From: a virus
Lineage: Duplodnaviria; Caudoviricetes
Reading direction: 5' to 3' (one strand)
Virus record (IMG/VR): IMGVR_UViG_3300045837_000213
Location: 29,432 to 93,431 of that record
Length of the DNA stretch: 64,000 nt
The translations under genes and the position numbers were made by a program. Shown here one piece after another: positions 4,927-34,580 of this stretch (its first letter is position 1; every line of letters starts with the position of its first letter). The notes under the pieces were generated by a model. It was not told the DNA's origin. It saw nothing but the letters and a program-made list of their open reading frames with translations, and did not search any database.

Positions 4927-7900
4927 CTATGCGGGCGGCAAGTCCGCCGCCGTTAATGTCCCGGAGGTGCAGCGTCTGAGTTCCCGGACCTGACGCTCCA
5001 ACTTCGCTACCCTACTTTCGTGGTCGAAGAGATATAGGTATGCCTCTTCGACCGAGGCCAGTAGCGCGTCGCCGCCACTGAAGAGTCCGTGTCCGGCGGT
5101 CTGCCCGAAACGCGGCAGGTGCCACCAAGTGCGCGCGAACTCTTCGACCGCTTCGAGCGGCCTCAATCCGGCGTACTCTCTCGCCCCGTCATGATCAATA
5201 AACCTCTCCACCTTCCCCGTGGCCCAGTGCTCCAACACGTAGTCGGGGTTCGTATAACTCGCGCCGTTTTTGTACATGTCCCCCGACACGTTGACGGTCC
5301 CCGCGCCCTTGCTGCTCCCCGTCGCCGTACCCAGGAACACCCCGCCGTCCTGCGCGATGGTCAGGTCGGCGTGACCCCTGGAGTTGTTGTCGCAGAAGAA
5401 CGCGATGGCGTTATTGCCGCCGCTGACTTGCGACTGGTTGAAAATCTCCAGGTTGCCCCGCCGCGTGGAGAGAGCGCTGGTGCTGTTGATGACCTCAAAC
5501 AGCCCACTGCCACGTGAGGTCGTGCCGTCGCCCAGCTGGAAATACTGAAAGCTCGCCGTGTCGGTCGTATAGATTTGGACGTATGCCGTGCCGGAAGAGG
5601 CGCTGAAAGCGCCGTCGCCGCGCACGTCGAGCATGGCGATGGGCGCGGCGTTACTCCCTACCGTTAATCCCGATAGGGAACCCGCGTCAGCGTACACCCG
5701 TGCGTCAGACGAAGTGCCGCCGCTCAACTTGAGCAGAGCGGATTGCGTGCCCGCGTAATTCCACGCCTTCAGGACGAGCGCGCCCGTCGTGTTGGTGCTG
5801 CTGCCGGCGGCGGTGATACTGGCCTGAGAAATTACGTTGGTCGAGTCGTCTTTTGCCTGAATGGCGAGTATGTTCGCTCCGCCTGAGTTTTGCCAATAAG
5901 CGGAGCCAAAGCCGCTATTCGTCGGGACGTTAACGATCAGCGCGCCACTCGCCGAGTCCGTACGACCCACGACGAGATTTCCGCTCGTCGCGTCAATCTT
6001 GAGAAGCTGGTTGCCCGATGAGAGACCATAGAGACCCGTGCGATCCATCCAGACGCCCGTCCCGGCGCTTGCGGAAGTCGGCGGCGTCGTGCCGAGGGCG
6101 AACGAGCCGCTTGACGAACTGATCGTGACCGCGCCGGTGAAGCTGCCGGACGTGGCTGTGATCGCGCCGGAGATGGTCGCGCTTGTCGCCGTCAGATTGC
6201 CCGACGAATCCAGCGTGAAGTTCGCCGCCTTGATGAGTACCTTAGACGAGTCCCATTGCAGATAATTGTTAGCGTCTTTATAAAGAGACAGACGGCCCGA
6301 ATTCGCGCCCTCAAGATAAACGCCCGCGTTCGCGCCGTAAGAGGTGGGTGGAGTCGCGCCCATCGAAATGTACTCGCCAGTGTTGTCCACATAGACGTGC
6401 GTTGACGAGATGCGGCTACTGCTCAACGTCCACCCGGCTATCGAACCGCCGCTGGCTATGACGTTTCCGCTGGTCGCGTCAATCCTGAAGATTCGGAGGC
6501 CGCCGTTCAGCGCGTACAGACCCGTCCTGTCGAGCCACAGGCCGGTGCCGTGGAGGGAGTCGGTGGGCGGGAGCGACCCGATAGAGATTGAGCCGCTTGA
6601 CGAACTGATCGTGAGCGGCCCGGTGATCGAGCCTGACGTGGCGGTGATCGCGCCGGAGACGGTCGCGCCCGTGGCCGTGATCTGCCCGCTCGTCGCGTCA
6701 AGGATGAAATTCTGAGTTCCCGCGTTGAGTCCGAAGATGCCCGTGCGGTCAACCCAGATGCCCGTGCCGTGTGTCGCATCAGTGGGCGGCGTCGTGCCTA
6801 ATGTGAAGGCCGCGCCCGAACCGGACACCTGCATCTTGCCGACGAGGAACATCCCCTGCGAGGCATCCAACTGAATCATGTTGTTGCCCGCAGAGTCGTT
6901 GATGTTCAGCACGCCGGCGGACGTGAGCTGGATGCGGTTGGTCGTGTTGAGGCGAATGTCAACCTCGCCCGACGAGATGCGGACGTTGCTCTGCCCCGCC
7001 GCGACCTGCCCGACCGTGATGTTGCCGGCGGCGTCTATCTGCTGGACGACAGTAGAGAGTCCGTTGATAGTGCGGTAGCCGTTCGTGCTGTCAATCGTGA
7101 CGTGAGTCTTGCCCGCGGCGTATTCGCCCAGCGCGATGCCGACGGTTGAAGCCGTGTAACCGTAGAAGCCCACCAATTCGCCGAACGCGGCGTGCTCCGT
7201 GATGTCATTCCACGTAGAAGAATTTCTCTTCCAGAGAACTTGAGTTGGCCCGACCTGCCCCTTGTTGTAATAGACGCGCCGCGCGGATTGTTGAGGCGTC
7301 GTAGCCCATGAGGTGAAGGCGGAGATTCTGACCCTGACCCAAAACGCGGATTGAGAGTTGACCGTGCTGCTCGCCCAGCTTGTGAGACTCGAAGCCGTCC
7401 ACTCGAACCCTTGCCAGCCGGTCGCCTTCCAATCTCCGTTCGTGTTGCCGACGAAGGTAGGGGTAAAGCTCGTCCAGGCCGAACCGTTCCAGTACTCCCA
7501 CACGAGAGTCGCGCTGTAACTCGCGGCGGTCGTGACGTTGAAATACAAGTTGTTCCAACTCGTATTCTGGACGCCGAAATAGATAGCGCCGTTGAGGACG
7601 TTCGCCGAATCGCCGAAGGGCGACCAGTTGGCGGAGGCTGCGTAGTTTGACGAGAACGCGGGCGCTGCCGTGGCGTTGTAGATGAAGTCGGGCGCGACGC
7701 TGACGGTCGAATGAAGGGAGAAAATGTCCCAGTAGCCGTTACCGGCCTGGCCCGTGTCCAAAGCGGCGTCGCCCGCGTTCCACGCGTTCGCGCCTGTGCC
7801 GTCCAGGTTGCGCGCGACTGAATACTGATACCCCCCGGTGACAGTCGAGGGGCCGGAGGTGACCCGCATGAACTCAAGGCTGCCGGACTCCTCGAAGCGA

Positions 7901-10087: not shown

Positions 10088-13000
10088 TTACCCGGTGGCG
10101 GTCGAGGCGAGACCCGGCGAGCCGTCGAACATCTCGCAGACCTCGACGGTCAATGCGGAGGGGATCGTGCCGCCGCCCCCCGTGTTGAAGTCCTGCTGCT
10201 GCATGGCGCGCGTGTAGGTGAAGGAGCGCGCCTGCGTATGATCCACGCGCGCCTGGAGAGCGTCCTGCGCCTCGCCCGAAAGCTGACCGACGGTGGCCTG
10301 CGCCTGGTAGGGCCAGCGCACGGGCGAGACGTTGGCGACGAAGATCGGCTTCGAGAGGTCTCCGACGTAGAAGCGGATGACGCCGCTGGCGACCTCAATC
10401 GCGCACGGGGTACCTGCCACGGCGATGCGCTTCGATGAGTCGAAGGCGACTGAGCAGGGGCGCAGGTAGAGCACGCCCGACGCGACCACGGCGTCGAGAG
10501 AGCAGAAGGCCGGCGAGGGGACGAGAGCGGGGTAGCTCATCGTGAAGCTCGCGGGTGTGCCCGAGAGAGAGACAGGCGTGCCGTTCGGGATGAGCGCGAT
10601 CTGAAAGCGCCCCTCCGTGGCGTTCACGACGTAGTAAGCGCCGCTCAGGGGTGAGGCGGAGTTGAAGACCACCTGGTCGCCGTTCTGCCAGTAATGATCG
10701 GGCGCGACGATCTCATTCGTCGCCGTGTCGCGCCCGCACGCCACGGTCGCGCCCACAAGGCGGAACTGGAGCGGCGGGTAGTGCGTGCCGAGCGTGAAGT
10801 GGACTAACGAGTCGCCGTAGATGATCTGGCCGGCCTGGAAGTCGCACGTGTGCGTCGCGTCGCCCGCGGTCGAGAGCGTGCCGTCTTCCGCGACCGAGGC
10901 GATTGAGGACGTGCCGAAGAGGTACTGCCACGCGAGCGGTTCGGAGTAGCCCGTCTCGACGTAGTGCGTGCGAATCAGGGTCGCGCCGTTGAAGACGCGG
11001 ACGCGATAGACCTCGGCGACGCCGCCCGGGCCGAGCGAGCCGCGCCGGCCCTTATCCCAGGAGGCCGTCAGAGGCGAGCCGTTCGACGCGTCGAGTCGCG
11101 TGAGCTTGAGGTTCGACGGCTGCGGCAGGAAGGCGTCGGCCTGGAACGTGTACGAGGTCGCGGGCACGGTCGCGATGTCCGCGCCGGCGGCGACGAACTT
11201 ATGGTCGCGCGCGACGAGCGCCTCCGACGCGTCCACCGGCAGGAACTTGAGCGCGTCGTCCAGGACGAGCAGCCGCTCGCTCGACGAGTGCCCGCTCATC
11301 GCCGTCTGGTCTTGCGCGCGGTTGACGAGGTTCGAGAAGCGCCAGCGGTTCGCGTAGCCGCCCAGTTGCGTCGCCGTCTTGTATTGCAGGCGCTCCGACC
11401 CGACCATCAGGCGGCCCAAACCGGCCGCGATGTCCGCGTCAGTGAAGCTGGCCGTCGGCTGCACCGTCCCGTAGATGTCGGCGTCTATTGTCTCGCTCCC
11501 GGTGTTCGTCGCCGCCAACGTCGTGGCGCAGACGCCGACGCACGCGTAGCGCGTCAGGTCGCACTCCTTCCTGTAACCCGCGCCGCGGTCGACATTGACC
11601 GCGCAGCCGCGGAACGGGGCCTGCTCGTAAGAGGCGACGCCTACGTAGTAGCCCTCCTTGCCCGTCGCCGCGTCTTCCGCCGTGAGGTAGTCGGTCTCGG
11701 CGAACTGCCCGACGAGAGTCGGCGGGAAGAAGACGGCGGGCGGCGTCCACGTCGGGGGCAACAGGTTCACGGGTTCGTGGTACTGCGCGCCGGCGACGAA
11801 GACGCCCTTGAAGGCGAGCGAGCCGGGCACGGGCCCCGTCCGCTCGGAGACTCTCACCGTGTAGGTCGTGTCGCCGTCGTCTAATTCGAGAACGGTCGCG
11901 GCGGTCGCGACGAGGTACTGGTGCGGCAGGTCGAATTCGACGGCGTAGCGCCCCTCCGTCCACGCGGTCTCGCCGAGGCGCCGGGCGACCGCCGCGACCT
12001 CGTCGGGCGAGAGCGCCATCAGCGTCGTCGCCTGCTGCGGCGTCTGCGAGGTCGTCTCGTCGCGCATCCACGAGCGCGTGACGTTCATAAATTCCGCGTT
12101 CGGGTCGTAGGCCGTGAGGTCTATGCGGCGCGGCAGCTCCACGTCGTTGAGCTTGACGCTCGTTCGAACCAGCTTCGGCGCGTCGTTCGACTGCGAGTCG
12201 CCGCCCGCCTTCTGCGCGCCGAAGCCGAGGTGGTCGGGCGGCACGTGGTAGCTGGCCGCGCCCCCGCGAAGCACGGCAGTCACCGCGCCGCCTATGTGCG
12301 CGAAGTCGAAGCCCCACCGAATCTGGAGCGTCTGCGCGGCGATCTGTTTCAGCGAGGCGGGCTGCGTGACGGCCATGCCGCGCACGTAGAGAGAGGAGAG
12401 AGCCGAAAAGTCGTAGTCGGCGGTGAGCGCGCCCGAGCGCACGGCGAGGTCGTCGAGGACGGCCTGCGCCGTGATGATTGATTTCGAGCGCAGGACGGCG
12501 GTGAAGTTCGGCACCCTCTGATAGTTCGTGAGGTTGAAGCGCTCCAACACGAGGTAGCAGCGCCCCTTGTACGCGGGCGCGACCGGAAGCCCGGAGCCGT
12601 ATTCGACGGGGAACTGTGTCTGCCAGTAGGCGTCAATTATGGGGTCGGGGAGTTGCGCCTCGTTGCCGGGGTAGAAGCGGAGTGCGGAGAACGCGCCGCC
12701 GACGACCGTGGCCGAGACCATGCCCGTCGTGTCGGGCGCGGGGACGATCGAGAAGTTGGCCGCCGGGTTGTCACGGTAAACCGGGTCGAGCGGCGAGGGC
12801 GGCGCGAGGTGGTTGATCGTGGGCGGCGTGACGGGCGTCGGGTTGACCGCGCCCGTCACGCCGGGCACGCTCACCGTCAGCTTGTCGAGGAGCAGCGTCG
12901 TCGAGGAGAGATTTGTGACCTTAATCGTGTTGAGCGCGCCGGAGGCGAGCGCGAACGGCGCGGAGAAGTAGCCGAGCGCATAGACGCCGCCCGTCGAGTT

Positions 13001-13693
13001 CAACGTCGTCGTGAAGGTCGAAGTGCCGGCCGCGCCCGACCAGTCGAACCTGACCGAGACCGCCGCCGCCGCCGAGTAGAAAAAGTTGAGGCGGTAAGCA
13101 GCGCCGTTGCCGACGACGCCGTTGAATTGCAGCGACGCGTTCAGCCCCATCGAGACGGCCTTGCCGCCCGACGCCGCGGCGTCCGTGATCGTGGTCGCGC
13201 CGCCCGCCGGGGTGTTCCCCACGTATTCGGCCTCGTATGAGCCGAAGGCTTCGGGGATGCCCAGTTGCGGGCGGATGTCGTAGATGAGGTCGGCGTCGGC
13301 GTAGAGCGCGAGCAGTTCGCACTCGGTGTCGGCGAACATGATGCCGATGTCGGCCTCGTAATTGTCGTTGATGATTTGGGTCGAGCGCGCGCCCTTGCCC
13401 GACCCTTGCGTCTCGGTCGTCGTCGTCTGGAATTTCCTGATGTCGCTTAAATAGACGACGTTTCCGGCGATGCGAAACCCGTGCGCGCTCCCGTCGGGCT
13501 GCACGCCCCCATAAACCAGCGGGATCATCGAGCCGTATTCGCTATCCTGTATCTGAACAGAGCCGGAGAGTTGGCCGCGCTCCTGGGCTTTCGGCTTCGG
13601 CGTTAATAAATAATTTAATGTGAACTCCGCCGCTGAGGTTGCGGCTGCGACCGCAGCAACGAGGAGTATACTTCCTGAGATCGGATCGGCCAT
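10088..13693 (-). CDS. tail tip / host-specificity protein (GTA-like), with a CBM-like YEAE insert
   Basis: YGSMIPLVYG...RIAGNVVY, PAYKGRCYLVLE and RVPNFT motifs; follows DUF2460-DUF2163-NlpC. Confidence 0.85.
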   Translation of the reverse strand: MADPISGSILLVAAVAAATSAAEFTLNYLLTPKPKAQERGQLSGSVQIQDSEYGSMIPLVYGGVQPDGSAHGFRIAGNVVYLSDIRKFQTTTTETQGSGKGARSTQIINDNYEADIGIMFADTECELLALYADADLIYDIRPQLGIPEAFGSYEAEYVGNTPAGGATTITDAAASGGKAVSMGLNASLQFNGVVGNGAAYRLNFFYSAAAAVSVRFDWSGAAGTSTFTTTLNSTGGVYALGYFSAPFALASGALNTIKVTNLSSTTLLLDKLTVSVPGVTGAVNPTPVTPPTINHLAPPSPLDPVYRDNPAANFSIVPAPDTTGMVSATVVGGAFSALRFYPGNEAQLPDPIIDAYWQTQFPVEYGSGLPVAPAYKGRCYLVLERFNLTNYQRVPNFTAVLRSKSIITAQAVLDDLAVRSGALTADYDFSALSSLYVRGMAVTQPASLKQIAAQTLQIRWGFDFAHIGGAVTAVLRGGAASYHVPPDHLGFGAQKAGGDSQSNDAPKLVRTSVKLNDVELPRRIDLTAYDPNAEFMNVTRSWMRDETTSQTPQQATTLMALSPDEVAAVARRLGETAWTEGRYAVEFDLPHQYLVATAATVLELDDGDTTYTVRVSERTGPVPGSLAFKGVFVAGAQYHEPVNLLPPTWTPPAVFFPPTLVGQFAETDYLTAEDAATGKEGYYVGVASYEQAPFRGCAVNVDRGAGYRKECDLTRYACVGVCATTLAATNTGSETIDADIYGTVQPTASFTDADIAAGLGRLMVGSERLQYKTATQLGGYANRWRFSNLVNRAQDQTAMSGHSSSERLLVLDDALKFLPVDASEALVARDHKFVAAGADIATVPATSYTFQADAFLPQPSNLKLTRLDASNGSPLTASWDKGRRGSLGPGGVAEVYRVRVFNGATLIRTHYVETGYSEPLAWQYLFGTSSIASVAEDGTLSTAGDATHTCDFQAGQIIYGDSLVHFTLGTHYPPLQFRLVGATVACGRDTATNEIVAPDHYWQNGDQVVFNSASPLSGAYYVVNATEGRFQIALIPNGTPVSLSGTPASFTMSYPALVPSPAFCSLDAVVASGVLYLRPCSVAFDSSKRIAVAGTPCAIEVASGVIRFYVGDLSKPIFVANVSPVRWPYQAQATVGQLSGEAQDALQARVDHTQARSFTYTRAMQQQDFNTGGGGTIPSALTVEVCEMFDGSPGLASTATG

Positions 13694-13903
13694 TTTGTGA
13701 GAAAAAGAAAAATGCCAGTGGGCAGACGTAGAGGTCTGCCCCCGCTGGCATTTTCGAGGTTCCGTTTTTTCCTTGATTATAGGTCGCGGTTCGCCGTCGC
13801 GGCCCGATCAGGAGTGACGCGCGTTGCGCGCGCTGTTAATACCATGCATTATAGCCGCGCCACTTGTCAATTTGTTTCTCACGAATGGTAAAGGAGGCGA
13901 AAA

Positions 13904-14356
13904 ATGACGCGAATTTTTGCGATGGCCCTACTTTTCTCAGCCTTCGCCCTGGCGCATGGCGCTCCGCAAGTCGCCGACAGGCCAGCAGGTAAGGCCACGG
14001 TCTATTTTTACAGGCTCAAGGAGTCGGGGCCCTACATCAAGACCAAGACGAGTGTTTACTGCGACGATGAAAAGCTGGCGGAGATAGGGAACGAGAGATA
14101 TTTCGCCGCCATGCTCGAACCCGGCATTCACACGTTCAGGTCAACAGATAAGCAGAGCGGCATCGAGAAAGAATTGAAGGCTGGCGAGGTCTATTATGTG
14201 AGAATCGAAATGAATTTGACCCGGATTAAATTATTCCGCAAGCCACCTTTCAGGGTGGCGACCGTCGAGCCTGAGCAGGGTAAGTATGAGGTAAAGCGAT
14301 TGAAGCCCATAAGTGAAGGTGATGTTAAGAACCATGAGAAGGTGACATTGCGGTAA
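13904..14356 (+). CDS. DUF2846-like secreted/envelope protein (moron)
   Basis: Signal peptide; ATVYFYR...LEPGIHTF...LKAGEVYYVRI; low GC; AAGGAGG RBS. Confidence 0.7.
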   Translation: MTRIFAMALLFSAFALAHGAPQVADRPAGKATVYFYRLKESGPYIKTKTSVYCDDEKLAEIGNERYFAAMLEPGIHTFRSTDKQSGIEKELKAGEVYYVRIEMNLTRIKLFRKPPFRVATVEPEQGKYEVKRLKPISEGDVKNHEKVTLR

Positions 14357-14596
14357 TTACAATTTAGGCTCGCGCTCGTGGACGTATCTCTCAAGGCAAG
14401 TGTAGCCGTCCGCTTTGGCTTGTGCGGCGTAGCCCCTGAGCCTGGCGATGATCTGCTCCGGCGTGCCCCGCGTCGTGTCATTCAAGATCGCCGCCGCCGA
14501 GAGCACGTCACCCCGCGTAAACTCGAACTCGTCTATGACGAGGAGTAAAGCGTCCTCCAACTCCGGCCTGCCCGTGTAGTAAAACCCCCCGCTCAC
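14357..14596 (-). CDS. hypothetical protein
   Basis: GTGA overlap with the upstream HTH gene. Confidence 0.55.
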   Translation of the reverse strand: MSGGFYYTGRPELEDALLLVIDEFEFTRGDVLSAAAILNDTTRGTPEQIIARLRGYAAQAKADGYTCLERYVHEREPKL

Positions 14597-14805
14597 TTCT
14601 TCCCGCCTTTCTTTGTTGATGGCCGCCCGCCCTTATCAGGCGTGAACTCTTGAAGGTCGCGGCGTGAGATGAATTTCTTTCCCGCGATTTCAATGAATGG
14701 GAGTTTACCTTGTCTTACTAGATGGCTAATCGCCTGTTTGGTAGTGCCGCGCTCTTCCGCGGCCTGCGTGATTGTAAGGAGTTCTTCGGGGTCTATTTTC
14801 ACCAT
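14593..14805 (-). CDS. helix-turn-helix DNA-binding protein (excisionase/MerR-like), probable cassette regulator
   Basis: LLTITQAAEERGTTKQAISHLVRQGKLP; basic GGRP tail; start chosen downstream of a -10 box. Confidence 0.8.
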   Translation of the reverse strand: MVKIDPEELLTITQAAEERGTTKQAISHLVRQGKLPFIEIAGKKFISRRDLQEFTPDKGGRPSTKKGGKK

Positions 14806-14811
14806 ATACCT

Positions 14812-14932
14812 ATTATACATACCTTTTGCCGGATGACAATATGTTATGCAAATTAAATATGCGGCTTGGCAATAAATCTCTTGCCTTCCGACAAAAGGTT
14901 ATTTATAATCCTTTTGTCGCTAGACAAAAGGA
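14812..14932. promoter_or_regulatory. divergent sigma70-type promoters with repeated operator-like motif
   Basis: + strand TTGCCT(14881)-17-TATAAT(14904); - strand TTGTCA-16-TATAAT (14839 to 14812); four CCTTTTGYC/GACAAAAGG copies. Confidence 0.7.
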
Positions 14933-14945
14933 AAGGCGGGCGAAC

Positions 14946-15074
14946 ATGGAAGACAAGAAAGAGCAGAAGCAGGAGACGCCGGAGGAGCGGGCCGAGCGGC
15001 AGGAGCTTAACCGGCGGATGTTCGAGTGGTTCTACGGCTACTGCGGCCAGATGGAGACGACGGTTCTATGTTAA
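14946..15074 (+). CDS. small hypothetical protein
   Basis: First ORF after the promoter; purine-rich RBS. Confidence 0.45.
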   Translation: MEDKKEQKQETPEERAERQELNRRMFEWFYGYCGQMETTVLC

Positions 15075-15427
15075 GGAAATTTCGTCCCATTACGCTCATC
15101 ACCCCTTTACAGGCGGCCACGCTTCTCGGCGTTGACCGCGCGGAACTCTTCAGGCGTTCGGGAGTCGCGGCGCACCTGGCGAAGGTGCGCCAAGGGAAAC
15201 GCTTCTCTTTCGTCCTCGAAGAAGTCGAGGCTCTCAGAAAGGAGTTACTTATGGATTACGTGATTCTATTGGCCCGCGACCCAAGCTCGCTCGCCTCTCA
15301 GGTAAACGACCTTATCAAGCGCGGGTGGCAGCCTCAGGGCGGCGTCGCCGCGAGCGAAGTTCACGAGGAAGGGACGGCGGCAGCGACGCAGTGGGCGCAG
15401 GCGATGGTTAAGCCCCAGTCGGAGTAA
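15068..15427 (+). CDS. HTH-like domain in frame with a DUF1737-like domain (internal start at 15251)
   Basis: QAATLLGVDR; AAGGAG before ATG 15251; VNDLIKRGWQPQGGV. Confidence 0.6.
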   Translation: MLRKFRPITLITPLQAATLLGVDRAELFRRSGVAAHLAKVRQGKRFSFVLEEVEALRKELLMDYVILLARDPSSLASQVNDLIKRGWQPQGGVAASEVHEEGTAAATQWAQAMVKPQSE

Positions 15428-15458
15428 ACGAACATTCCTCAGGAAGGGAGAGGGATTC

Positions 15459-15872
15459 ATGGCACAACGGGAAAGCACGGACGATATGTATTCATTACTC
15501 AAGAGGCGTTTCGACTGCTCGGAGCGGGCCGCGCTCGTCAGGCGGAAATTCGAGGTGCTGACGGTCGGGCGCGTCTCTTACCTGATTCAGTCAATCGTCT
15601 CCGAGGAGCAGGACACCTTCAAAGAGAGGTTCAACCGCCCGATCACCTTCGAGCAGGCGAAGGAGTTGGCGTCGCGGCTCCTGACGGGCGACTTCGGCGG
15701 CGGCGACGGGCAGATTCACGCCCTCATCGAGCTAATCGTCGGGATCGCCTACGAGGAGGATCACGTCGAGCGCGAACGGCTTGCGATGAGCGCTATCCGC
15801 GAGGCGTTCTTTTTCTCGGAGGCCCACGACGAAGCTTTGAACCAATTTTTCCATTGCGGGCCGAAGCAATGA
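15459..15872 (+). CDS. hypothetical protein
   Basis: GGAGAGG RBS; coupled to the HNH gene. Confidence 0.65.
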   Translation: MAQRESTDDMYSLLKRRFDCSERAALVRRKFEVLTVGRVSYLIQSIVSEEQDTFKERFNRPITFEQAKELASRLLTGDFGGGDGQIHALIELIVGIAYEEDHVERERLAMSAIREAFFFSEAHDEALNQFFHCGPKQ

Positions 15873-16174
15873 GGCGAAGATTGACTCAGGCGGAAAAGTT
15901 GCGACGGCTCTTCCAAAGGCGTCGTATGGCTACGGCCCGGCGGATGCTACGCCGGGCCGCGTCATACGGCGTAAGGGCCGAACATGTGACCCTCGACGAG
16001 ATCATCGAGCGCGACGGAACGCGCTGCCACCTTTGCGGCTTAGAAACAGACGTGGACGATAGGACTCACGACCACGTTGTGCCTCTCGTCAGGGGCGGGG
16101 AGCATACGACTATCAACTTACGCATCGCCCACAGGCGGTGTAATTCAATGAAGGGCGGTAAGAGTCACGCCTGA
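15869..16174 (+). CDS. HNH endonuclease
   Basis: RDGTRCHLCG...DHVVPLVRGGEH...NLRIAHRRCNSMKG. Confidence 0.9.
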   Translation: MRRRLTQAEKLRRLFQRRRMATARRMLRRAASYGVRAEHVTLDEIIERDGTRCHLCGLETDVDDRTHDHVVPLVRGGEHTTINLRIAHRRCNSMKGGKSHA

Positions 16175-16193
16175 TTCTAAAACGAGTTTTCTT

Positions 16194-16273
16194 GGGCGGG
16201 CATGGCTCGGTGAGGTAGGGCAACGCATGGAACGGTTTGGCCCGGCGCAGTATGGCCTGGCAAGGCATGGTTC
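16194..16273 (+). repeat. GGY-NN pentamer array 1 (16 units; putative guide RNA)
   Basis: GGGCG GGCAT GGCTC GGTGA GGTAG GGCAA CGCAT GGAAC GGTTT GGCCC GGCGC AGTAT GGCCT GGCAA GGCAT GGTTC. Confidence 0.9.
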
Positions 16274-16288
16274 AAACGCAAAAGGAGC

Positions 16289-16918
16289 ATGAGAATGTCA
16301 AACATCGTCAAGGCGAAAATCACGATCAGGGGTATGCGTCCGCTCTTACAACATCATTTCGGGCCGGACGCGTTGCCTTTGGAAAAGCAGGAGAAAGACG
16401 GCGTGGCGGGGAACTCGCCCAACGAGTGGCGGAAGACGGCGATGGTCACTAAAGACGGCCAGCTTTACCTTGAGCCGACCTACGCCTTTGCCACAATCCG
16501 CGACGCGGCGAAGTACACGAAAAAGGGGAGAGGCTCACTCCAAACCGCCGTCGCCGCCACCCTTCAAGTGCTGGACGACAGGATTTTGATTGATAGGTTT
16601 TTTCCGGGCTTCCCGAACGGACATGCCTTCGACATCCAGAAGGTCGAGCCGCCTTCGCTCGACAGGGAGCTTCCGGTTTACCTCGACGTGCAGTCTGTGA
16701 GGAATCCGACCACCAAAGCCCGCAACGTCAGGTACAGGGTGGCCGCATCCTCCGGCTGGTCGTGTTCGTTTACGATCATGTTCGACAAGACAGTCGTTGA
16801 CCGTAACCAGATGCAAGCTGTCCTTAATGACGCCGGCACTCTCGTCGGTATTGCCGACGGCAGAAGCGTTGGGTTTGGCAGGTTTTCCGTTGAAGCTTTC
16901 GACTTCTTAGAGTCTTAA
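16289..16918 (+). CDS. stand-alone Cas7/RAMP-like RNA-binding protein
   Basis: N-terminal strand ITIRGMRPLL; WSCSFTI; C-terminal Gly-rich loop GIADGRSVGFGRF; AAGGAG RBS (start 16289 or 16295); no other cas genes in the window. Confidence 0.8.
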   Translation: MRMSNIVKAKITIRGMRPLLQHHFGPDALPLEKQEKDGVAGNSPNEWRKTAMVTKDGQLYLEPTYAFATIRDAAKYTKKGRGSLQTAVAATLQVLDDRILIDRFFPGFPNGHAFDIQKVEPPSLDRELPVYLDVQSVRNPTTKARNVRYRVAASSGWSCSFTIMFDKTVVDRNQMQAVLNDAGTLVGIADGRSVGFGRFSVEAFDFLES

Positions 16919-16921
16919 CGC

Positions 16922-16987
16922 GGTGAGGCGGGGCAGGGTTCGGTATGGCGGGGCTTGGCGGTGGCCGGGCTTGGCGAGGCAAGGTCA
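16922..16987 (+). repeat. GGY-NN pentamer array 2 (13 units; putative guide RNA)
   Basis: GGTGA GGCGG GGCAG GGTTC GGTAT GGCGG GGCTT GGCGGT GGCCG GGCTT GGCGA GGCAA GGTCA. Confidence 0.9.
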
Positions 16988-17057
16988 CATACTGAAATCT
17001 GCTTCGGTCGCTCCACGGTCGAGGGCTTCGAGTTCATAGATTCATAAAGTTCCACTC

Positions 17058-17144
17058 GGCTTGGCTGCGGCTTGGCTGGTCATGGCAGGCTTCGGCTCGG
17101 TAGGGCAAGGCGATGGCAGGTTTGGGCTTGGCTAGGCGAGGAAC
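17058..17144 (+). repeat. GGY-NN pentamer array 3 (17 units; putative guide RNA)
   Basis: GGCTT GGCTGC GGCTT GGCTG GTCAT GGCAG GCTTC GGCTC GGTAG GGCAA GGCGAT GGCAG GTTTG GGCTT GGCTA GGCGA GGAAC. Confidence 0.85.
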
Positions 17145-17146
17145 GA

Positions 17147-17443
17147 ATGCCCAAGAAGCGACAGCCGCGCGAAATCTGGCTTAAGACGAAGCGCAGAATC
17201 TACGAGCGAGACGGGGGCTTATGTCAATACCCGTCTGGCAAGCATCCTGTCGCATTTGAGGAATCACATTGCGACCACATCCAGAGCGGGAAGCGAGCAA
17301 CGAACGCCGATAGCAACCTCCGAACTCTCTGCCGGATGCATCACGTCTTGAGAGCAGATAAGCGGCACAGGGGGCTAGTTGCCGCTGCCCTCCGAGATGG
17401 TATTATTGATGCCGGCTGGCGCAGTCAGGTATGGGAAGATTGA
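17147..17443 (+). CDS. HNH endonuclease
   Basis: RDGGLCQYP...HCDHIQSG...NADSNLRTLCRMHH; GAGGA RBS before MPKKRQ. Confidence 0.85.
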   Translation: MPKKRQPREIWLKTKRRIYERDGGLCQYPSGKHPVAFEESHCDHIQSGKRATNADSNLRTLCRMHHVLRADKRHRGLVAAALRDGIIDAGWRSQVWED

Positions 17444-17452
17444 ATTTCACGG

Positions 17453-17522
17453 GGCATGGCAGTGTTCGGCTAGGGTAGGTTAGGTTCGGCAAGGCGTGGC
17501 TCGGTAAGGCGTGGCAAGGAGA
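17453..17522 (+). repeat. GGY-NN pentamer array 4 (14 units; putative guide RNA)
   Basis: GGCAT GGCAG TGTTC GGCTA GGGTA GGTTA GGTTC GGCAA GGCGT GGCTC GGTAA GGCGT GGCAA GGAGA. Confidence 0.9.
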
Positions 17523-17553
17523 AAGGGCGGATGAACTCCGCCCTTTCTATTTT
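17520..17553 (+). terminator. intrinsic terminator closing the RAMP/HNH operon
   Basis: AGAAAGGGCGGA-TGAAC-TCCGCCCTTTCT followed by ATTTT. Confidence 0.85.
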
Positions 17554-17637
17554 GAAGTGATCGGGGCGCGTTGGCTATGGCGAACCCGCGCCCCTCCGGT
17601 GATAAGAAAATGCCAGCACAACCTTACCACCAAAACT

Positions 17638-18120
17638 TCACACGTCTTCTAGCGCGGCTATTTCGCGGACTCGGAACGCCGAAACATTAAAAATCGGATC
17701 AGTCCAGCGGCCTTCCGTCACACACCGCGTGGCGCGATAACGGTAGGCGTGAACGCAGCGCAGATTGTCCACCTCGTTAAGCGTCACGACTCCACAATGC
17801 TTTGCCGGTTCATTCAACCTATAGCAACGGGTCACTACATCGCCGGGCCTTGCGTCCCGCCAATGTTGCAGCCTCACCATGTGCTCGGCGAGTTTCGTAT
17901 CTAACAAGTCGCCTTCGGGAACGATATGGTATTCATAATCGTGTAGCTCGAAACCGCAGATGTCTGCCGCCGCCAGCAATACGCCCAAACAATCAAAGCC
18001 GACATCGCGCGAGCGACCCCGGTAGGCATACGGCGAGCCGACGAGGGAGCGCGCCGCGGCGACGAAGGCCGCGCGCAGCTCGTCCGCCGTCGGGTTAGGT
18101 GTGAGGGTTATTTCGGCCAC
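17638..18120 (-). CDS. NlpC/P60 tail-associated peptidase
   Basis: AARSLVGSPY...GFDCLGV...KHCGV...VHAY; GTG start overlapping the DUF2163 stop. Confidence 0.85.
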   Translation of the reverse strand: MAEITLTPNPTADELRAAFVAAARSLVGSPYAYRGRSRDVGFDCLGVLLAAADICGFELHDYEYHIVPEGDLLDTKLAEHMVRLQHWRDARPGDVVTRCYRLNEPAKHCGVVTLNEVDNLRCVHAYRYRATRCVTEGRWTDPIFNVSAFRVREIAALEDV

Positions 18121-18920
18121 GAGTAGAGTTTGTTTCTGCCGGGGATGGCCGGCTCGCCGCGGAAGAATTCTGCCCGCCCCTTCTTGATGCAGGCGGGGAA
18201 GGTGTGCGCGCAGCCTTCGGAGAGGACGACCGTGTCGCCTATGGCGACGGCGTGCCTCATGTTCTCGACGAGCTGCACGGTGAGCGTCCCGCCCGACTGA
18301 GAACTGTTGCTGATCTGACCCGACAGGCCGTTGTTCGCGCCGGACGTGAAGGTGATCTTGCCGCGCTGGTAGTAGTTGTCTTCCGGCTCGGTGAGCGTAA
18401 ACGTCACGACGTCGCGCGCGGTGAAGCCGGTCACGGTCGCCGTCGCCTTGTTGGGCGTCGCGCCGCACTGTGTCGAGCCGAAACCCGTGCGGCACGTGTC
18501 CTGGTAGGTGTCCCCGACCGGCTGGTTGAAGAGGAGCGCCACGTCGAGGATTTCGCACTTCATCGCGCCGGCGTCATAGACGACCGAGTTGAGCACCCCG
18601 CGCCACGTCTCCTCGACCGTCCCCGTGTCCCAGCGGTACTTCCTGATCTCGACGCGCGCGCCGTCCCACTTGCCGCCCAACAGGTCTTCCTTCGTCACCC
18701 CGGCTGCGCTCATCGAAAGCCCGATCTCCATGTTTCCGGGTTCGAGGTTTTCGACCTGCTGCTCCTGCGAGGGGCGCAGGTCGGCGACCGCGTATGTGAC
18801 TCCCGCGTAGGTGACCGGGCGCGTCGCGCTCGTCACGTCCACGCCCGAACCGTCCAAGGCGATCAGGCGCCAGAGCGTCGTGTACCGGGAGAGCTGCGTG
18901 ATGTCTATGGTCGCGGGCAT
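18108..18920 (-). CDS. DUF2163 / BR0599-type tail hub protein
   Basis: CRTGFGSTQCG, FTSGANNG and GCAHTFPAC...FRGEPAIPG motifs. Confidence 0.85.
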   Translation of the reverse strand: MPATIDITQLSRYTTLWRLIALDGSGVDVTSATRPVTYAGVTYAVADLRPSQEQQVENLEPGNMEIGLSMSAAGVTKEDLLGGKWDGARVEIRKYRWDTGTVEETWRGVLNSVVYDAGAMKCEILDVALLFNQPVGDTYQDTCRTGFGSTQCGATPNKATATVTGFTARDVVTFTLTEPEDNYYQRGKITFTSGANNGLSGQISNSSQSGGTLTVQLVENMRHAVAIGDTVVLSEGCAHTFPACIKKGRAEFFRGEPAIPGRNKLYSWPK

Positions 18921-19017: not shown

Positions 19018-19671
19018 TCATTCCCGGTCTTCTATCAGCAGAAGTTCGGGCTGCTCGCCGAGCGCCTTTTTGGTCGAGACGGCGAGCTTAAACAACTCCC
19101 AATCGACCTCGTCGTCCTTGAAGCGGACGGGCACGTAGAAATTCCCGTCCCACGTCGGAGCTGCCGCCGGCGGCGAGGTGAACGTCACCAGCCCCGTCGT
19201 GTAATCAATCGAGTAGCCGGAGGTGACGAGCGCGTTGGAGTCGTAGATGAGTACCGTGCCCGATTGAGGGCGAGTGATCTTGCGCGCGTGCGTGCGGTAG
19301 GAATTCGAGTAGAGCTTTTGCAGTTGGAAGACGGTCGTCGAGCCGCCGTAGCTCTCCGCGACGCCCTGCTCGAAGCAGCCGCCCGAATTCGGTATCACGT
19401 CCTGCGTGTGAATGACCGAATAGTCCGACCAGTCGGTCAGCAGGAAAGAGATCTCCGGCCCGTTGCAGGCGTAGAAGAAGGCGCGCACCAGGCGCACGTG
19501 GTCGAGCGTGCGGATGCCCGGCGTGCAGTCGAACGTGTGGCGCGAGTCCTGCCACAGCGGGGTGCGTACCTCGACGCCCGACGTGCCCTCCTGGATGTCG
19601 GTCGAGAACTGCACGCCGCCGCCGATCTTCTGCACGTTGTTTAAGGGGAAGACAACGGGATCCACAGCCAT
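19018..19671 (-). CDS. DUF2460 (TIGR02217-like) distal tail protein
   Basis: SGVEVR..LW, FLLTDWSDY, FQLQKLY and FYVPVRF motifs. Confidence 0.85.
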   Translation of the reverse strand: MAVDPVVFPLNNVQKIGGGVQFSTDIQEGTSGVEVRTPLWQDSRHTFDCTPGIRTLDHVRLVRAFFYACNGPEISFLLTDWSDYSVIHTQDVIPNSGGCFEQGVAESYGGSTTVFQLQKLYSNSYRTHARKITRPQSGTVLIYDSNALVTSGYSIDYTTGLVTFTSPPAAAPTWDGNFYVPVRFKDDEVDWELFKLAVSTKKALGEQPELLLIEDRE

Positions 19672-19700: not shown

Positions 19701-22700
19701 TTAAGCGGGTTGGAATTGGAGGAGCTGCGCGCGGGCGGCGCGCCCGATCTGGCGGCCCGTCTTGCGCGCGCGCCCGCGCCCGGCTGACGTGTCCTCGTCG
19801 GCGCGGACGAAGACCTGCACGGCCCCGACCGAGACGCCGCCGCCGAAGGAAGAGCGCGACGCGTAAGACGGCGGCGTGTAGCCGGAGGCGAAACCGCCCG
19901 CGGCGAACGACCCGCCGCTGAGGCCCGTCATGCCGAGATAAGCCGCGAGCAGTTGCCTCATGCGACCGCGCTGCGCCGGGTCGGTCGTCAAGACGACCTC
20001 GTCGTAGCCGCCCTCGGCCACGCGGATGAAGCGCCCGCCCGGTCGCGCGCCGAAGATGCCGCCCGACGCGGCGTAGCCCGACGACGTGTCGGGATTGATG
20101 CCCGTCGGGTCGTCGGCCATCGTGCCGCCCGACGAGTCGTGCGGCTTGAAGAGTCCGTTGGTGAGTCCCGAAATGAAGCCGATGCCGGCGGCGGCGAGCA
20201 AGCCTTTCCAGAACGACCCTTGCGCCGCGCCCGCCGCGAGAACAGCCGCGATCGAGAGCATCGTCGAGACGATTGACTGCCCGACGCTCATCAGCGTCTT
20301 CGACTGCGCCTCGCCGGTCTTGCCGATCTGCGCGACCGAATTCTTCCACCCGTCGTTGATGGCCGTCGTGGCGGCGTGCCCCGCGCTTGAGACCGCTGAG
20401 GCGTCGGCCTTCTGAGAGTTGTTGTTGCCGCCGAGGTTGAAGAGTCGGCTGATCATCGCGCCGAACAGGCCGAAAGGCCCCAGCGCGCTCTGAACGCCGC
20501 TCTGCTGTCTCGGCTGTTGCGTCGTGCCCGTCGCCGAGCCGGGCAGCGGCGTGTTCGTCAACTGTCGGAGCAACGTCATCAGCTTCGATTCGAGCAGGTT
20601 CTCTTCCATCTTGATAATCATGTTGAGGAAGTCCTGCCCGATCTGCTGGAACATCGCCTTCCAGCCCTTCGTCCGAAGGGTCTGGAGCGCGCCGTCGATC
20701 AAGGAGATGGCCTTGTCGGCCATCTGCTTGAGCCGGTCGTTCTGCTTGGCGATTAAATCGTCCAACAATGCCAACTGACGGACGTTAGAGGATTGGCGCA
20801 CCGCCTCCATCTCGTCATCAAGGGCCTTCAACTTTTCGAGTTTTTTAACTCCGTCCTGTTCGGTCGCCTCAGTCGTCTCGCGCTCAAGTTGTAGCTCGCG
20901 TAACTTTCTCTCCTGCTGCAACTGCTCGCCTTCGAGGTCGAACTGGTACTGCTTCTGCCAGAGCGCCTGCTTGTTCTTACCCGACGCCTCCATCACCTTC
21001 AACAGCGCTTCCTGCGCCGAGCGCTGGTCTTCGGCGGTCGCGTCGGTGATCTCGGCGAGAGACTTCCTGTAGTTCTGCAACGTCGAGAGGTCGTCGGCGA
21101 CCGCCGTCTGCTCGTCCTTGTTGAATTGGGCGAACGCCTGCTTGCGTTGCAGGAAGAACGCCTTGATCTGGTCGATGGCCTCCTGCGCGGCCTCCGGGTT
21201 CGACGCGTTGGCGAGGATGGTCTTGAACGCGTCCTGCATCCCCTCGCTGTTCGTCGCGTTCACCGCGTCGTTGACCGCCTGCGAGATCATCTCCGCGAGG
21301 TCGAGGTCGGGGCCCGAGAGCGCCGACACCTCGCCCGCCCCGCCCATCGCGTGCGTGAGCGCGCCTTCGAGGACTTTGCCCTGCGCCTCGGCGACGGCGC
21401 CTAAGGCCGTGAAGCGCGCGCGCATCGCGGCGACGTGCGTCGTCGTTCCCGCCTCGATCTGGAGCTGGAGTTCCGCGTCCTGCGCGCGCTGCGCCTCTTC
21501 GAGTAAAGAGACCGCCGATTGCGCGAACTTCTGCTGTATGTCATAGCGGTGTTGTTCGCCCTCGGCGGTGTACTGCGAGAGTTTGTCCTGGTGCTCGCGC
21601 TCGGCGGCCTGCTCGCGCTGGCGGATGTCTTTGAGCTTAACGTCGCGCTTCGCGCCGTCGAGTCCGGCGGCGGCCGCCTCTTCCGCCTTGAAGCCGGCCC
21701 GCACGGCCTTGTAGCGCTCGTCTTCGAGTTGTTTGAGCGTCGAGACGTAGGACTCGTAATCGGTGAGGTTCTGGTCGAGGAAGCGCTTGGCGATCTGGTT
21801 GCCCTGCTGATAGACCGACTCTGCCTCGCGCAAGTCTATCTGCGCTGATTCCAGCGCGGCGTCGGCCATCTCGTTGCCGGCCTTGCGCCCCTTGCGGCCG
21901 CCGCCCGACTTCTCGCCCATCAGCCCGGAGACGTGTTTCGCATAATCATCTTGCGCCTTCTTCGTCGCGGCTTTGACAGCGGCATCGGCCTGCATCAGCC
22001 CGAGCATGAAAGGCGACGGCGGCTGCGCCAGGCCCCGCGCGAGCGCCGAGCCGACGCCCGCGTTGCCGCGCGCGTAATAGTCCTGCGCCGCCCTCTCGCG
22101 CATCGCGTATGGCGCGGTGAATTTGCCGCCCGAAGCGGCGCGCTCTTCCGACGTGCGCCCGTCGCCCGACGCGTAACCGCTGACCGCCTGAATGACCGAG
22201 AGTGCCGCGCGCCACGCGACGGCCACCTCGTGCGCCTTCTCGATGACGGCCAGCGCGACGCCGCCGACGATCTGCCCCCACGTCCTGAAATCGTCGCCGT
22301 TCTGAGAGAGCCACTTCGAGAGGTTGTCGAAGAGCGCCTCGAAGATGGGCATGACCTCCTCGCCCACCTTGACTTTCATCACGTCGAACTGCGCGGCGAG
22401 CAACTTCTGCTTGGCCTCGAACTCCTGCGCCGCCGCCGCGTCCTTGTCCGACAGCACCGCGCCGAGGTCTTCGAGGTGCTTGATGAACGTCGGCAGGTCG
22501 CCGTGCGCCTGCGCGATGATCGCCAGCATCGCCTTGCCGCCGCGCCCGAACGCCTCCATCGCCAGTGCCGTCTTCGTCGTGCCGTCAGGCAGCTTCGACA
22601 GGACGGTGAACATCCCTTCGAGCGCCTTCTGGTTGTCGCGCACGTCCACGTTCGCGTCCTTCAAAACGCGCGACAGTTTCGACGACTTCTCGGCGCCGGC

Positions 22701-23699
22701 CTCTAACTTCTTCTCGAAGATGCCGAGGCCTGCGCCGATCTGATTGAACGAGACGCCGACCTGTGAGGCGGCCACGTCGAGCGCGTTCAGTTCGTGCGCC
22801 GTGTAGCCCGTCTCCATCGAGAGGTCTTTGTATTTCGCCCCGACCTCGGCGGCTGAACTGGCGAGCTGATAAGCGCCGTACACGACGCCGACAGACGCGG
22901 CGGCGACCGCCGCGAGTGCCGCGACGACGAGGAGTAGCGGCCCGGAGACTTCGCCCAGCATGGCGACGAGGCCGCCGCCGGCGGAGGCCAGCCCGGCCAG
23001 CCCCTGCTCTGCCGTCGAGGCCGCGCCCTTCAGAGACGCCAGTTCCTTCTCCGTGTCGGCGATCTGAACTTTCGTGTTGCCGAGCGCGCGCGTCGCGCTG
23101 CGCTCCATGTTCCCGAACTTGGCGGCGGCGCGGTCGACCTCGTTCGCCAACTCCTGCGAGATGCCGCCCGTCGCGCCGAGAATGAGCGCGTCACGTTCTT
23201 TCGCGCCCGCCGTGTTGTTGTAGTTGCGGAGAAAATCGGAGGAGAAGCTCTGCCCCGTGCGGCGCTGGAGGTCGTCGACCAGCCGCTGCGTGCCGCCGGC
23301 GAAGTCCGACGTGATGAGCGACGCCTTGGCGCGCAGCGAGGCGAGTTTCGATTCGAGGCCGACTATCGACATACCCAACTGCTCGACCTGCTTGCGCGCC
23401 GACACAATCGCCGTCTCGCTGGCCTGCCCCGCCGTGAAGAAGCTCTGTCGCAGGGATGAGGCGCGCCGCTCGACCTGCGCGAGCACGCCGCCGACTAAGG
23501 GCACGCGCTGGAGTATGCGCGCCGTCGCCTGGTCGAGTCCGGTGAACGCCTGCGAGCCGACGCGCGAGTAGGTGCGGTCAATTCTGGCCGCCGCGTCGCC
23601 GAGGCTGCGCTCCATGCGCGCGAGCTTGGCCTCGACCGGCGTGATGTCGGCGTCGGCGGTGACGAGGATCGAACCTATTTCGTTACCGGCTAAGTCCAC
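19701..23699 (-). CDS. tape measure protein
   Basis: 1332 aa, Ala-rich helical; C-terminal AEGGYDEVV...FAAGG; position in the tail operon. Confidence 0.9.
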   Translation of the reverse strand: MDLAGNEIGSILVTADADITPVEAKLARMERSLGDAAARIDRTYSRVGSQAFTGLDQATARILQRVPLVGGVLAQVERRASSLRQSFFTAGQASETAIVSARKQVEQLGMSIVGLESKLASLRAKASLITSDFAGGTQRLVDDLQRRTGQSFSSDFLRNYNNTAGAKERDALILGATGGISQELANEVDRAAAKFGNMERSATRALGNTKVQIADTEKELASLKGAASTAEQGLAGLASAGGGLVAMLGEVSGPLLLVVAALAAVAAASVGVVYGAYQLASSAAEVGAKYKDLSMETGYTAHELNALDVAASQVGVSFNQIGAGLGIFEKKLEAGAEKSSKLSRVLKDANVDVRDNQKALEGMFTVLSKLPDGTTKTALAMEAFGRGGKAMLAIIAQAHGDLPTFIKHLEDLGAVLSDKDAAAAQEFEAKQKLLAAQFDVMKVKVGEEVMPIFEALFDNLSKWLSQNGDDFRTWGQIVGGVALAVIEKAHEVAVAWRAALSVIQAVSGYASGDGRTSEERAASGGKFTAPYAMRERAAQDYYARGNAGVGSALARGLAQPPSPFMLGLMQADAAVKAATKKAQDDYAKHVSGLMGEKSGGGRKGRKAGNEMADAALESAQIDLREAESVYQQGNQIAKRFLDQNLTDYESYVSTLKQLEDERYKAVRAGFKAEEAAAAGLDGAKRDVKLKDIRQREQAAEREHQDKLSQYTAEGEQHRYDIQQKFAQSAVSLLEEAQRAQDAELQLQIEAGTTTHVAAMRARFTALGAVAEAQGKVLEGALTHAMGGAGEVSALSGPDLDLAEMISQAVNDAVNATNSEGMQDAFKTILANASNPEAAQEAIDQIKAFFLQRKQAFAQFNKDEQTAVADDLSTLQNYRKSLAEITDATAEDQRSAQEALLKVMEASGKNKQALWQKQYQFDLEGEQLQQERKLRELQLERETTEATEQDGVKKLEKLKALDDEMEAVRQSSNVRQLALLDDLIAKQNDRLKQMADKAISLIDGALQTLRTKGWKAMFQQIGQDFLNMIIKMEENLLESKLMTLLRQLTNTPLPGSATGTTQQPRQQSGVQSALGPFGLFGAMISRLFNLGGNNNSQKADASAVSSAGHAATTAINDGWKNSVAQIGKTGEAQSKTLMSVGQSIVSTMLSIAAVLAAGAAQGSFWKGLLAAAGIGFISGLTNGLFKPHDSSGGTMADDPTGINPDTSSGYAASGGIFGARPGGRFIRVAEGGYDEVVLTTDPAQRGRMRQLLAAYLGMTGLSGGSFAAGGFASGYTPPSYASRSSFGGGVSVGAVQVFVRADEDTSAGRGRARKTGRQIGRAARAQLLQFQPA

Positions 23700-34575: not shown

Positions 34576-34580
34576 GGTCG

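Follow-up and report, generated by a model that had tools for sequence, protein, structure and literature searches.

An HNH-bearing VIPR cassette between two phage tail genes carries guides predicted to target insert-free alleles of its neighbors

VIPR systems are built from a Vipr RAMP protein, guide RNAs (vrRNAs) of alternating GGY/NN units and a vap accessory gene, and the NN pairs read double-stranded DNA (dsDNA) with one skipped base, usually the wobble base, at targets in competing phages (bioRxiv 10.64898/2026.04.26.720920). Filament and triplex structures and the phage–satellite conflict are presented in two further preprints (bioRxiv 10.64898/2026.04.26.720927 and 10.64898/2026.10.15.759431). 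In type II VIPR, Vipr protomers coat each GGY/NN guide RNA, and the filament binds dsDNA and silences it. The published threshold for a target is an NN match of 80%. The preprints also argue that wobble skipping blocks escape by synonymous mutation, report hammerhead-interspersed arrays and place the nuclease VIPR types mainly in host defense islands. Types III–V are stated to carry enzymes, and the legend of Fig. S21 has an HNH domain among types II, III and VII. Here, a self-contained VIPR cassette of the HNH-bearing kind is described from a 64,000-nucleotide stretch of Caudoviricetes DNA (positions 29,432–93,431 of the IMG/VR record IMGVR_UViG_3300045837_000213; the whole stretch is referred to as the window). 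The cassette sits precisely at the junction of the g14-like and g15-like tail genes in a phage or prophage. Its guides, judged from sequence matches, are well supported as targeting rival phages' alleles, including alleles of the genes that flank the cassette. The VIPR module itself is already known from the 2026 preprints, and text searches of the three preprints found no homing-style layout, HNH mechanism or six-fold-codon self-avoidance such as this locus shows in silico.

The OMEGA nucleases TnpB and IscB of IS200/IS605 elements use an element-encoded guide RNA that sends the nuclease to the element-free allele, where repair restores or spreads the element (for a review, see PMC13565253). 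The cassette would resemble them in that the guide RNA of a mobile element directs a nuclease to an element-free allele. TnpB and IscB differ in that they belong to an unrelated family (a RuvC/HNH single effector with an omega RNA), use a contiguous guide and reside in a Y1-transposase transposon, and none of these features is present in the cassette. Another comparison is with Seg and Mob, free-standing homing endonucleases found in T4-like phages (PMC2988022, PMC2790892) that act in intronless homing or marker exclusion. As in those systems, a nuclease gene lies between conserved genes and is missing in relatives, the site in the empty allele is located within a few hundred base pairs of the insertion, the carrier is protected by site differences, and co-conversion of the flanks is expected. 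The locus differs from them in how sites would be recognized: guide RNAs coated by a Vipr filament, rather than the nuclease protein itself, would read several of them simultaneously. Cleavage and gene conversion are presumptive here.

The insert occupies positions 13694–17637, which are 3,944 bases from the start codon of the tail-tip gene (13693) to the stop codon of the NlpC/P60 gene (17638). The tail-tip/host-specificity gene (g15-like; 10088–13693, minus strand) encodes a 1201-residue Phage-tail_3 protein (Pfam PF13550, phrog_4271), and the NlpC/P60 minor tail gene (g14-like) extends on the minus strand from 17638 to approximately 18120, where its start is placed. All four arrays and most genes of the insert are on the plus strand, and the flanking genes are on the minus strand. 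The guanine-plus-cytosine (GC) fraction is 0.49–0.60 over 13.6–17.8 kb, compared with 0.65–0.72 for the flanking tail genes. These strand and composition data agree with the first-pass annotation, a reading of the letters alone, which had described a 3.9-kb, lower-GC, mostly opposite-strand block at this position. It had also assumed that the NlpC/P60 and tail-tip genes are normally adjacent, which is the case in three relatives (L101, L102 and L103), where the two genes abut and the insert is absent. Tail-tip relatives are few and were obtained by protein search, and a single-protein pattern search of viral contigs returned no tail-tip relatives. The tail-tip protein shares 82% identity with that of L102 and 78% with that of L101; for L103, the identity is 53% across most of the protein and 71% for the N-terminal 130 residues. 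At the L102 junction, the NlpC/P60 stop codon TAA is followed directly by ATG. Thus, the comparison with empty-site relatives that had been proposed as a check was run, and the existence of three such relatives contradicts the opposing possibility that there are none.

Both edges of the insert carry the 10-mer AAAATGCCAG, at 13709 and 17607 on the plus strand, and a third, inverted copy is found at 13745. Neither the window nor the 93-kb contig that contains it has any further copy (0.03 expected; 0 of 100 shuffles reached 3). The left-edge copy and its inverted partner form the outer stem of a hairpin read from the sequence (13709–13754), and the right-edge direct copy (17607–17616, plus strand) is located 21 nucleotides (nt) past the NlpC/P60 stop codon. 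The repeated motif previously noted near both block edges is therefore present above chance, with an additional inverted copy. The edge copies may represent a target-site or microhomology duplication from the original insertion.

The cassette contains four vrRNA arrays on the plus strand: array 1 (16194–16273, ∼15 GGY/NN units), array 2 (16922–16987), array 3 (17058–17128, irregular units) and array 4 (17452–17522). Guides were scored by gapless NN matches at every position on both strands, and the maximum score after shuffling of the unit order was used as the null. In the window, array 1 matches best at 13434–13481 in the tail-tip gene (23/32; shuffled maximum 19.3 ± 0.8; 1 of 300 shuffles reached 23, P = 0.003), and array 3 matches best at 20737–20778 in the tape-measure gene (22/28; shuffled maximum 18.0 ± 0.8; 0 of 300 shuffles reached it). 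These two sites are the targets that had been decoded ∼0.25 kb to the left and 3 kb to the right of the block, and both stand above the shuffles. The best match of array 2 in the window is not significant (16/24, P 0.86), and neither array 2 nor array 4 has an above-chance match in the window or the contig.

Higher scores are observed outside the carrier. Array 1 matches the tail-tip gene of L101, L102 and L103 (26/30; null mean 18.1), array 3 the tape-measure gene of L101 (25/28; null mean 17.7) and array 4 the NlpC/P60 gene of L101 and L102 (21/22; null mean 14.4). The array-4 target is additional to those decoded in the first-pass annotation. Array 2 matches the G-loop codons (DGRSIGFGRF) of the vipr genes of L002, L028, L036 and L047 at 20/20, with a null of 15.7 over 1.18 Mb. 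Array 2 had also been considered as a self-targeter of the carrier's own vipr gene; this assignment was rejected because that match is not significant and the real targets are other vipr genes. In every target, the skipped base is the third (wobble) codon position, and the NN pair corresponds to codon positions 1–2. When each array was scored on its own target set, skips of 0, 2 and 3 nt stayed at the null level, and the 1-nt skip alone exceeded the null. The earlier 'two bases, skip one' decoding is equal to the published VIPR rule, and because the other skip lengths give null-level scores, that rule is independently supported on a distant Vipr clade. When the guides of 115 arrays from other loci were compared with this phage and its relatives, a single borderline match (16/20) was obtained.

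It is very improbable that the guide–gene matches are a chance or local-duplication by-product and that the block is a moron island. Such a view can appeal to arrays 2 and 4, which lack a significant match in the carrier's own window. Against it, the scores in the relatives are far above all shuffles with the 1-nt skip only, the wobble register is kept, and a 5-nt guide period cannot come from copying a 3-nt coding period.

The match of the three tail-gene guides is 87–95% NN in the insert-free relatives and 58–79% in the carrier's own three tail genes. The carrier sites are accordingly below the 80% threshold in the tail genes, with the tape-measure site as the best (79%), and the site in the carrier's vipr gene is exactly at the threshold (16/20); no self-target exceeds 80%. 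The array-1 site (13434–13481, minus strand; tail-tip codons 72–87) is 213–260 nt from the insert. It keeps the residues ..YLSDIRK and spells them with TTA, AGC and AGG in place of CTC, TCN and CGC, the guide-expected codons, in L101–L103. At the array-3 site in the tape-measure gene (20737–20778, minus strand), four of four Leu codons are TTR, compared with CTN in L101, and three of these changes break the guide match. The array-2 site in the carrier's vipr G-loop (DGRSVGFGRF; 16856–16885, plus strand) has Ser AGC and Arg AGG instead of the guide-expected TCN and CGN, in addition to an Ile-to-Val change. The array-4 site in the NlpC/P60 gene (17920–17958, minus strand; 283–321 nt from the insert) scores 15/26, compared with 22/26 in L101 and L102, and diverged through amino-acid changes.

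Codon-family switches make up 2.3–2.8% of the aligned codons in these genes, and TTR represents 14% of the Leu codons in the phage genes. Three guide-breaking synonymous switches occur in each of a 16-codon and a 14-codon site, for which a Poisson probability of ∼0.007 per site was estimated. The six-fold degenerate Leu, Ser and Arg codons are a loophole in the wobble-skipping code, its sole route of synonymous escape, and the carrier, by its codons, uses it. Rare TTA/TTG codons where the relatives have CTN are also clustered at 13603–13618 (tail-tip codons 26, 29 and 30) and at 20500–21100 in the tape-measure gene, where the GC fraction dips to 0.55. These additional clusters may be recoded sites for the guides of other, unsampled VIPR cassettes.

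The vipr gene (16295–16918, plus strand) encodes a 207-residue protein with a C-terminal G-loop. The protein has 1314 homologs and no Pfam family, and it matches phrog_4652 of unknown function. An AlphaFold model (predicted local distance difference test score, pLDDT, of 78) was matched by Foldseek to Csm3 and type VII Cas7 with an E-value of 6.5e-7; gRAMP domains were also among the top matches, and the VIA Z value was 9.9. The residues G185, R190, G193, G195, R196 and F197 near the C-terminus are invariant. The model gives Vipr the fold of a Cas7/Csm3-like RAMP protein, and a glycine-rich loop is present, in keeping with the minimal single-RRM RAMP protein expected of a VIPR member. No tblastn match of Vipr was obtained at an E-value of 1e-5 in 50,697 phage records, which puts Vipr at a large distance from the type II systems that have been studied, those of SUSP1 and P. 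fulva. The four arrays are phased-GG tracts with a 5-nt period and 12–14 units each on the vipr strand, and they are the sole tracts of at least 12 units in the 64 kb. The related loci comprise 99 fetched from Acidobacteriota, Armatimonadota, Chloroflexota, Cyanobacteria, Bacillota, Chlamydiota and viral contigs. Arrays just downstream of vipr recur in most of 61 genome loci, even at a GC fraction of 0.31, and the association of vipr with arrays and an HNH partner is conserved in six phyla. The block is assigned to VIPR because the Cas7-like fold, the four GGY/NN arrays and the conserved arrays and HNH partner fit the VIPR description.

The likeness to described VIPR systems extends to a lone Cas7-like RAMP protein with a G-loop, flanking GGY/NN pentamer arrays, one accessory gene, a phage-borne location and 1-nt-skip, wobble-aligned targets in competing phages and rival vipr genes that reach the 80% level. 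The differences are that the partner here is an HNH nuclease and that the cassette lies inside a tail operon and is aimed at alleles of its own flanking genes. The preprint's text and legends suggest that the HNH-partner cassette corresponds to its type III. The Cas7 backbones of Class 1 CRISPR-Cas (Csm3, Cmr4 and type VII Cas7) are the best structural matches over the whole Vipr protein. They differ from the cassette in guide period (5 nt in the cassette versus 6 nt), and the cassette has neither a repeat-spacer array nor other recognizable cas genes. No CRISPR-like repeats were found over 12–22 kb, and Pfam and PHROGs identified no other cas gene in the cassette. Membership in CRISPR-Cas was therefore rejected, given the lack of a repeat-spacer array and of further cas genes (Cas5, Cas6, Cas8, Cas10, Cas1 and Cas2). 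A reading of the GG repeats as an RsmZ/CsrA sponge or a TRAP-like element was dropped in view of the VIPR papers and the target matches.

Array architecture varies among the related loci. In the Nostoc/Anabaena loci L033 and L039, arrays with a 5-nt period that read ..AGTCA AGTCA.. are located ∼30–130 nt downstream of vipr. These would be a variant of the repeat consensus that changes together with the Vipr clade, and the GG-based scan missed the arrays of approximately ten cyanobacterial loci because GT replaces GG. In Bacillota, the order is vipr, HNH, a hammerhead-like motif seen by eye (GAAAC, hairpin, GUC/GUA, hairpin, CUGAUGA) and the array. The motif is found in L010 (∼6150–6240), L016 (∼6890–6950), L021 (∼6880–6980), L026 (∼7010–7085) and L051 and L060 (both ∼6890–6960), and a degenerate copy lies between two arrays in L026. 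Rfam did not call the hammerhead-like motifs of the Bacillota loci at the gathering score or at E-values up to 10.

Two HNH genes are interleaved with the four arrays, as had been reported previously: HNH#1 (15854–16174, plus strand; Pfam PF01844, E 5e-9) and HNH#2 (17147–17443, plus strand; phrog_144, phrog_589). By tblastn, an HNH#2-type homolog of ∼97 residues is present in 94 of 100 vipr loci and is the only strongly conserved vipr neighbor, and D43, H44, N53 and H66 are invariant in the HNH#2 alignment. The possibility that the HNH proteins do not co-occur with RAMP homologs, raised earlier as a counterargument, is contradicted by this distribution. HNH#1 has an intact HNH/zinc motif and a single weak relative among the other vipr loci, in L076. 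On this comparative evidence, HNH#2 is the conserved accessory nuclease (vap) of this Vipr clade, as VIPR membership would entail, and HNH#1 is not the conserved partner. Outside phage tail modules (L006, L008, L070, L054, L042, L028 and others), the vipr–HNH pair is located beside tyrosine or serine recombinases, P4-type primases and type I restriction genes, often with a divergent XRE-type helix-turn-helix (HTH) gene alongside, which suggests small integrative or defense islands.

The two HNH genes bear on a classical, protein-guided form of homing, in which HNH#1 (or HNH#2) would recognize the empty junction itself and the VIPR genes would be cargo. HNH genes that stand free between conserved genes are a common feature of phages, and their products cut close to the point of insertion (PMC2988022, PMC2790892). 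The intact motif of HNH#1 fits this explanation. Nevertheless, we regard it as improbable. Almost all other vipr loci lack HNH#1, HNH#2 is nearly always present, and protein-guided recognition explains neither the guides that spell the flanking genes nor the carrier recoding exactly at guide positions.

The target sites are arranged around the insertion point. In L102, the array-4 site is located 287–325 nt upstream of the empty junction and the array-1 site 197–244 nt downstream, and in L101 the array-3 site is ∼3.2 kb upstream. The in silico pattern of recognition is thus like that of intronless homing, with sites ∼0.3 and ∼0.2 kb on either side of the junction that match at 95% and 87%, in comparison with 58–72% in the carrier. 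The first-pass annotation had proposed that the cassette either spreads by cutting cassette-free relatives or excludes them. That proposal gains support from the guide matches to insert-free relatives, two of which bracket the insertion point; cutting and copying would be its further steps.

An RNA-guided form of intronless homing or marker exclusion is favored for the cassette, with moderate confidence. In this mechanism, the guides would bind cassette-free alleles of the tail-tip, NlpC/P60 and tape-measure genes and the G-loop codons of rival vipr genes, and the conserved HNH partner (HNH#2) would cut the bound rival DNA. During mixed infection or superinfection of a lysogen, the break would destroy or cripple the rival, and its repair from the carrier genome would copy the cassette and the linked immune flanks into the rival. 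RNA-guided homing or marker exclusion is favored because the conserved partner is a nuclease, because two targets bracket the insertion point at 0.2–0.3 kb on either side, because the immune alleles are linked to the cassette, and because silencing of rival tail genes would exclude poorly in mixed infection, where tail proteins are shared.

The main rival explanation, which we consider less likely but plausible, is exclusion or silencing with no copying, in which the cassette would block or destroy relatives that superinfect or co-infect. The targets would then adjoin the cassette since it survives recombination only with tightly linked immune alleles. Published VIPR systems repress competing phages and satellites, the guides match relatives while the carrier escapes, and array 2 aims at rival vipr genes that are unrelated to this insertion site, all of which suit exclusion alone. 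Besides the presumably weak effect of tail-gene silencing in mixed infection, exclusion alone leaves unexplained why two of the three tail-gene targets lie within 0.3 kb of the insertion point, on either side, why the cassette-adjacent gene is matched at several other loci and why the conserved partner is a nuclease.

Flank co-conversion, which RNA-guided homing would entail, was assessed by nucleotide identity around the junction. The carrier and L102 are mostly 0.80–0.93 identical across the g13-like gene and the start of the NlpC/P60 gene, and 0.74–0.90 identical in the tail-tip gene beyond a carrier-specific divergent tract. Within this tract, from approximately −414 to +246 nt around the junction, the identity is 0.56–0.72. 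L101 and L102 are 0.72–0.82 identical in parts of the same tract, for example 0.72–0.79 between −354 and −174. The GC fraction of the tract is 0.51–0.61 in the carrier versus 0.57–0.72 in the relatives, and the tract (∼0.7 kb) contains both flanking target sites. In the single carrier genome, the divergent, low-GC tract is suggestive of a foreign, co-converted flank. The NlpC/P60 protein beside the insert is 66–68% identical to those of L101 and L102, in comparison with 77–88% for the g13 protein and 78–82% for the tail-tip protein.

Close Vipr homologs are found elsewhere in tail modules, in cassettes that share this organization (divergent HTH_17, small open reading frames (ORFs), vipr, arrays and HNH). 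The L105 cassette, on the opposite strand, separates the tape-measure gene from its upstream genes; the L062 and L066 cassettes are upstream of the tape-measure gene; and the L104 cassette is beside the gene for a 2667-residue SLT-domain protein. A total of 106 arrays were decoded automatically, and each was scored against its own locus, with approximately ten best matches at z of at least 3.9. Self matches within 300 nt of the array, in the cassette-adjacent gene, were obtained for L086/L087, L080, L097 and L063. Four of ten self matches within 300 nt correspond to an estimated P of ∼4e-4 if matches were uniform over ±8 kb, although the set was not assembled for such a test. In L104, a 79% site lies ∼120 nt from an array, and a guide of L063 matches L062 at 80%, just upstream of the L062 cassette. 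Many of the mismatches at near-cognate self sites of other loci are Leu/Ser/Arg family switches. The L105 arrays had no target among the sequences compared. As a generalization, we tentatively propose that HNH-bearing VIPR cassettes might be RNA-guided homing elements, or natural gene drives, of phage tail modules, with six-fold-codon-recoded flanks copied along.

Several observations weigh against RNA-guided homing at this locus. Synonymous family switches are common throughout the genes concerned, in both directions, and all pairs vary in the 60 nt that directly adjoin the junction on each side. With one carrier genome at this site, co-conversion is not separable from local fast divergence. 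The parsing of array 3, with its irregular units, follows the choices of the first-pass annotation. The best tail-gene targets are 87–95% rather than 100% matched, so that the true rivals are unsampled. Expression of the guide RNAs, formation of the ribonucleoprotein and cutting by HNH at this locus are predicted, and the activity published for VIPR, in type II systems, is silencing of transcription rather than cleavage. In addition, HNH#1 alone could move the block.

The remaining genes of the insert are small. A DUF2846 protein with a signal-peptide-like N-terminus (13904–14356, plus strand; Pfam PF11008, E 5e-11) represents cargo, and it is followed by a 79-residue ORF on the minus strand (14357–14596) that has no family match in Pfam or PHROGs. 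An HTH_17/Cox-excisionase-like regulator (14593–14820, minus strand; Pfam PF12728, phrog_66) is divergent from the vipr operon, and its homologs are located upstream of vipr in L062, L063, L104 and L105. Divergent sigma-70-like promoters with repeated operator-like ACAAAAGG motifs are predicted at 14812–14931 (promoter matches of 11/12 and 10/12). The plus strand further encodes a DUF1737 protein (15068–15427; Pfam PF08410) and a 137-residue ORF (15459–15872) without a family match in Pfam or PHROGs. The regulator and promoter pair would drive a single plus-strand operon in the order small ORFs, HNH#1, array 1, vipr, array 2, array 3, HNH#2, array 4 and terminator. The putative terminator is a stem-loop followed by a T-run (17522–17553, plus strand), which was read from the sequence and is not listed by the consensus scan. 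A relic of the vipr 3′ end, which reads ..FGRSTVEGFEFIDS*, is located between arrays 2 and 3 (16997–17047, plus strand); it suggests that new arrays arise when the gene end and its array are duplicated in tandem. An Rfam scan of the cassette at E-values up to 1 returned chance-level matches only.

The contig that contains the window is 93,431 bases long, and the minus strand of the window carries a phage structural module from ∼38 kb down to 5 kb. The portal gene (33001–34770) and the major head protein gene (28379–29512), both assigned by Pfam and PHROGs, precede the tape-measure (19701–23699), g12-like (19018–19671) and g13-like tail assembly (18108–18920) genes on this strand. The last three, together with the NlpC/P60 and tail-tip genes, constitute a gene transfer agent (GTA)-like tail module. 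No integrase was seen among the contig genes scanned. The same contig contains an ISL3 transposase (window positions 56158–57465), a GTP cyclohydrolase I (39031–39726) that may serve 7-deazaguanine modification of DNA, and a family 4 glycosyltransferase of the 'conflict-system' kind (42108–43094).

With regard to the role of nuclease-bearing VIPR and to carrier self-avoidance, the locus offers a concrete, testable case that has targets for all four guides, empty-site relatives and immune alleles of the carrier defined to the codon. The codon-family switches qualify the claim of the preprints that wobble skipping prevents synonymous escape. If the HNH protein cuts the guided targets, the cassette would represent the RNA-guided equivalent of phage intronless homing, and selfish spread by guide RNA would have originated a second time, independently of TnpB/IscB.

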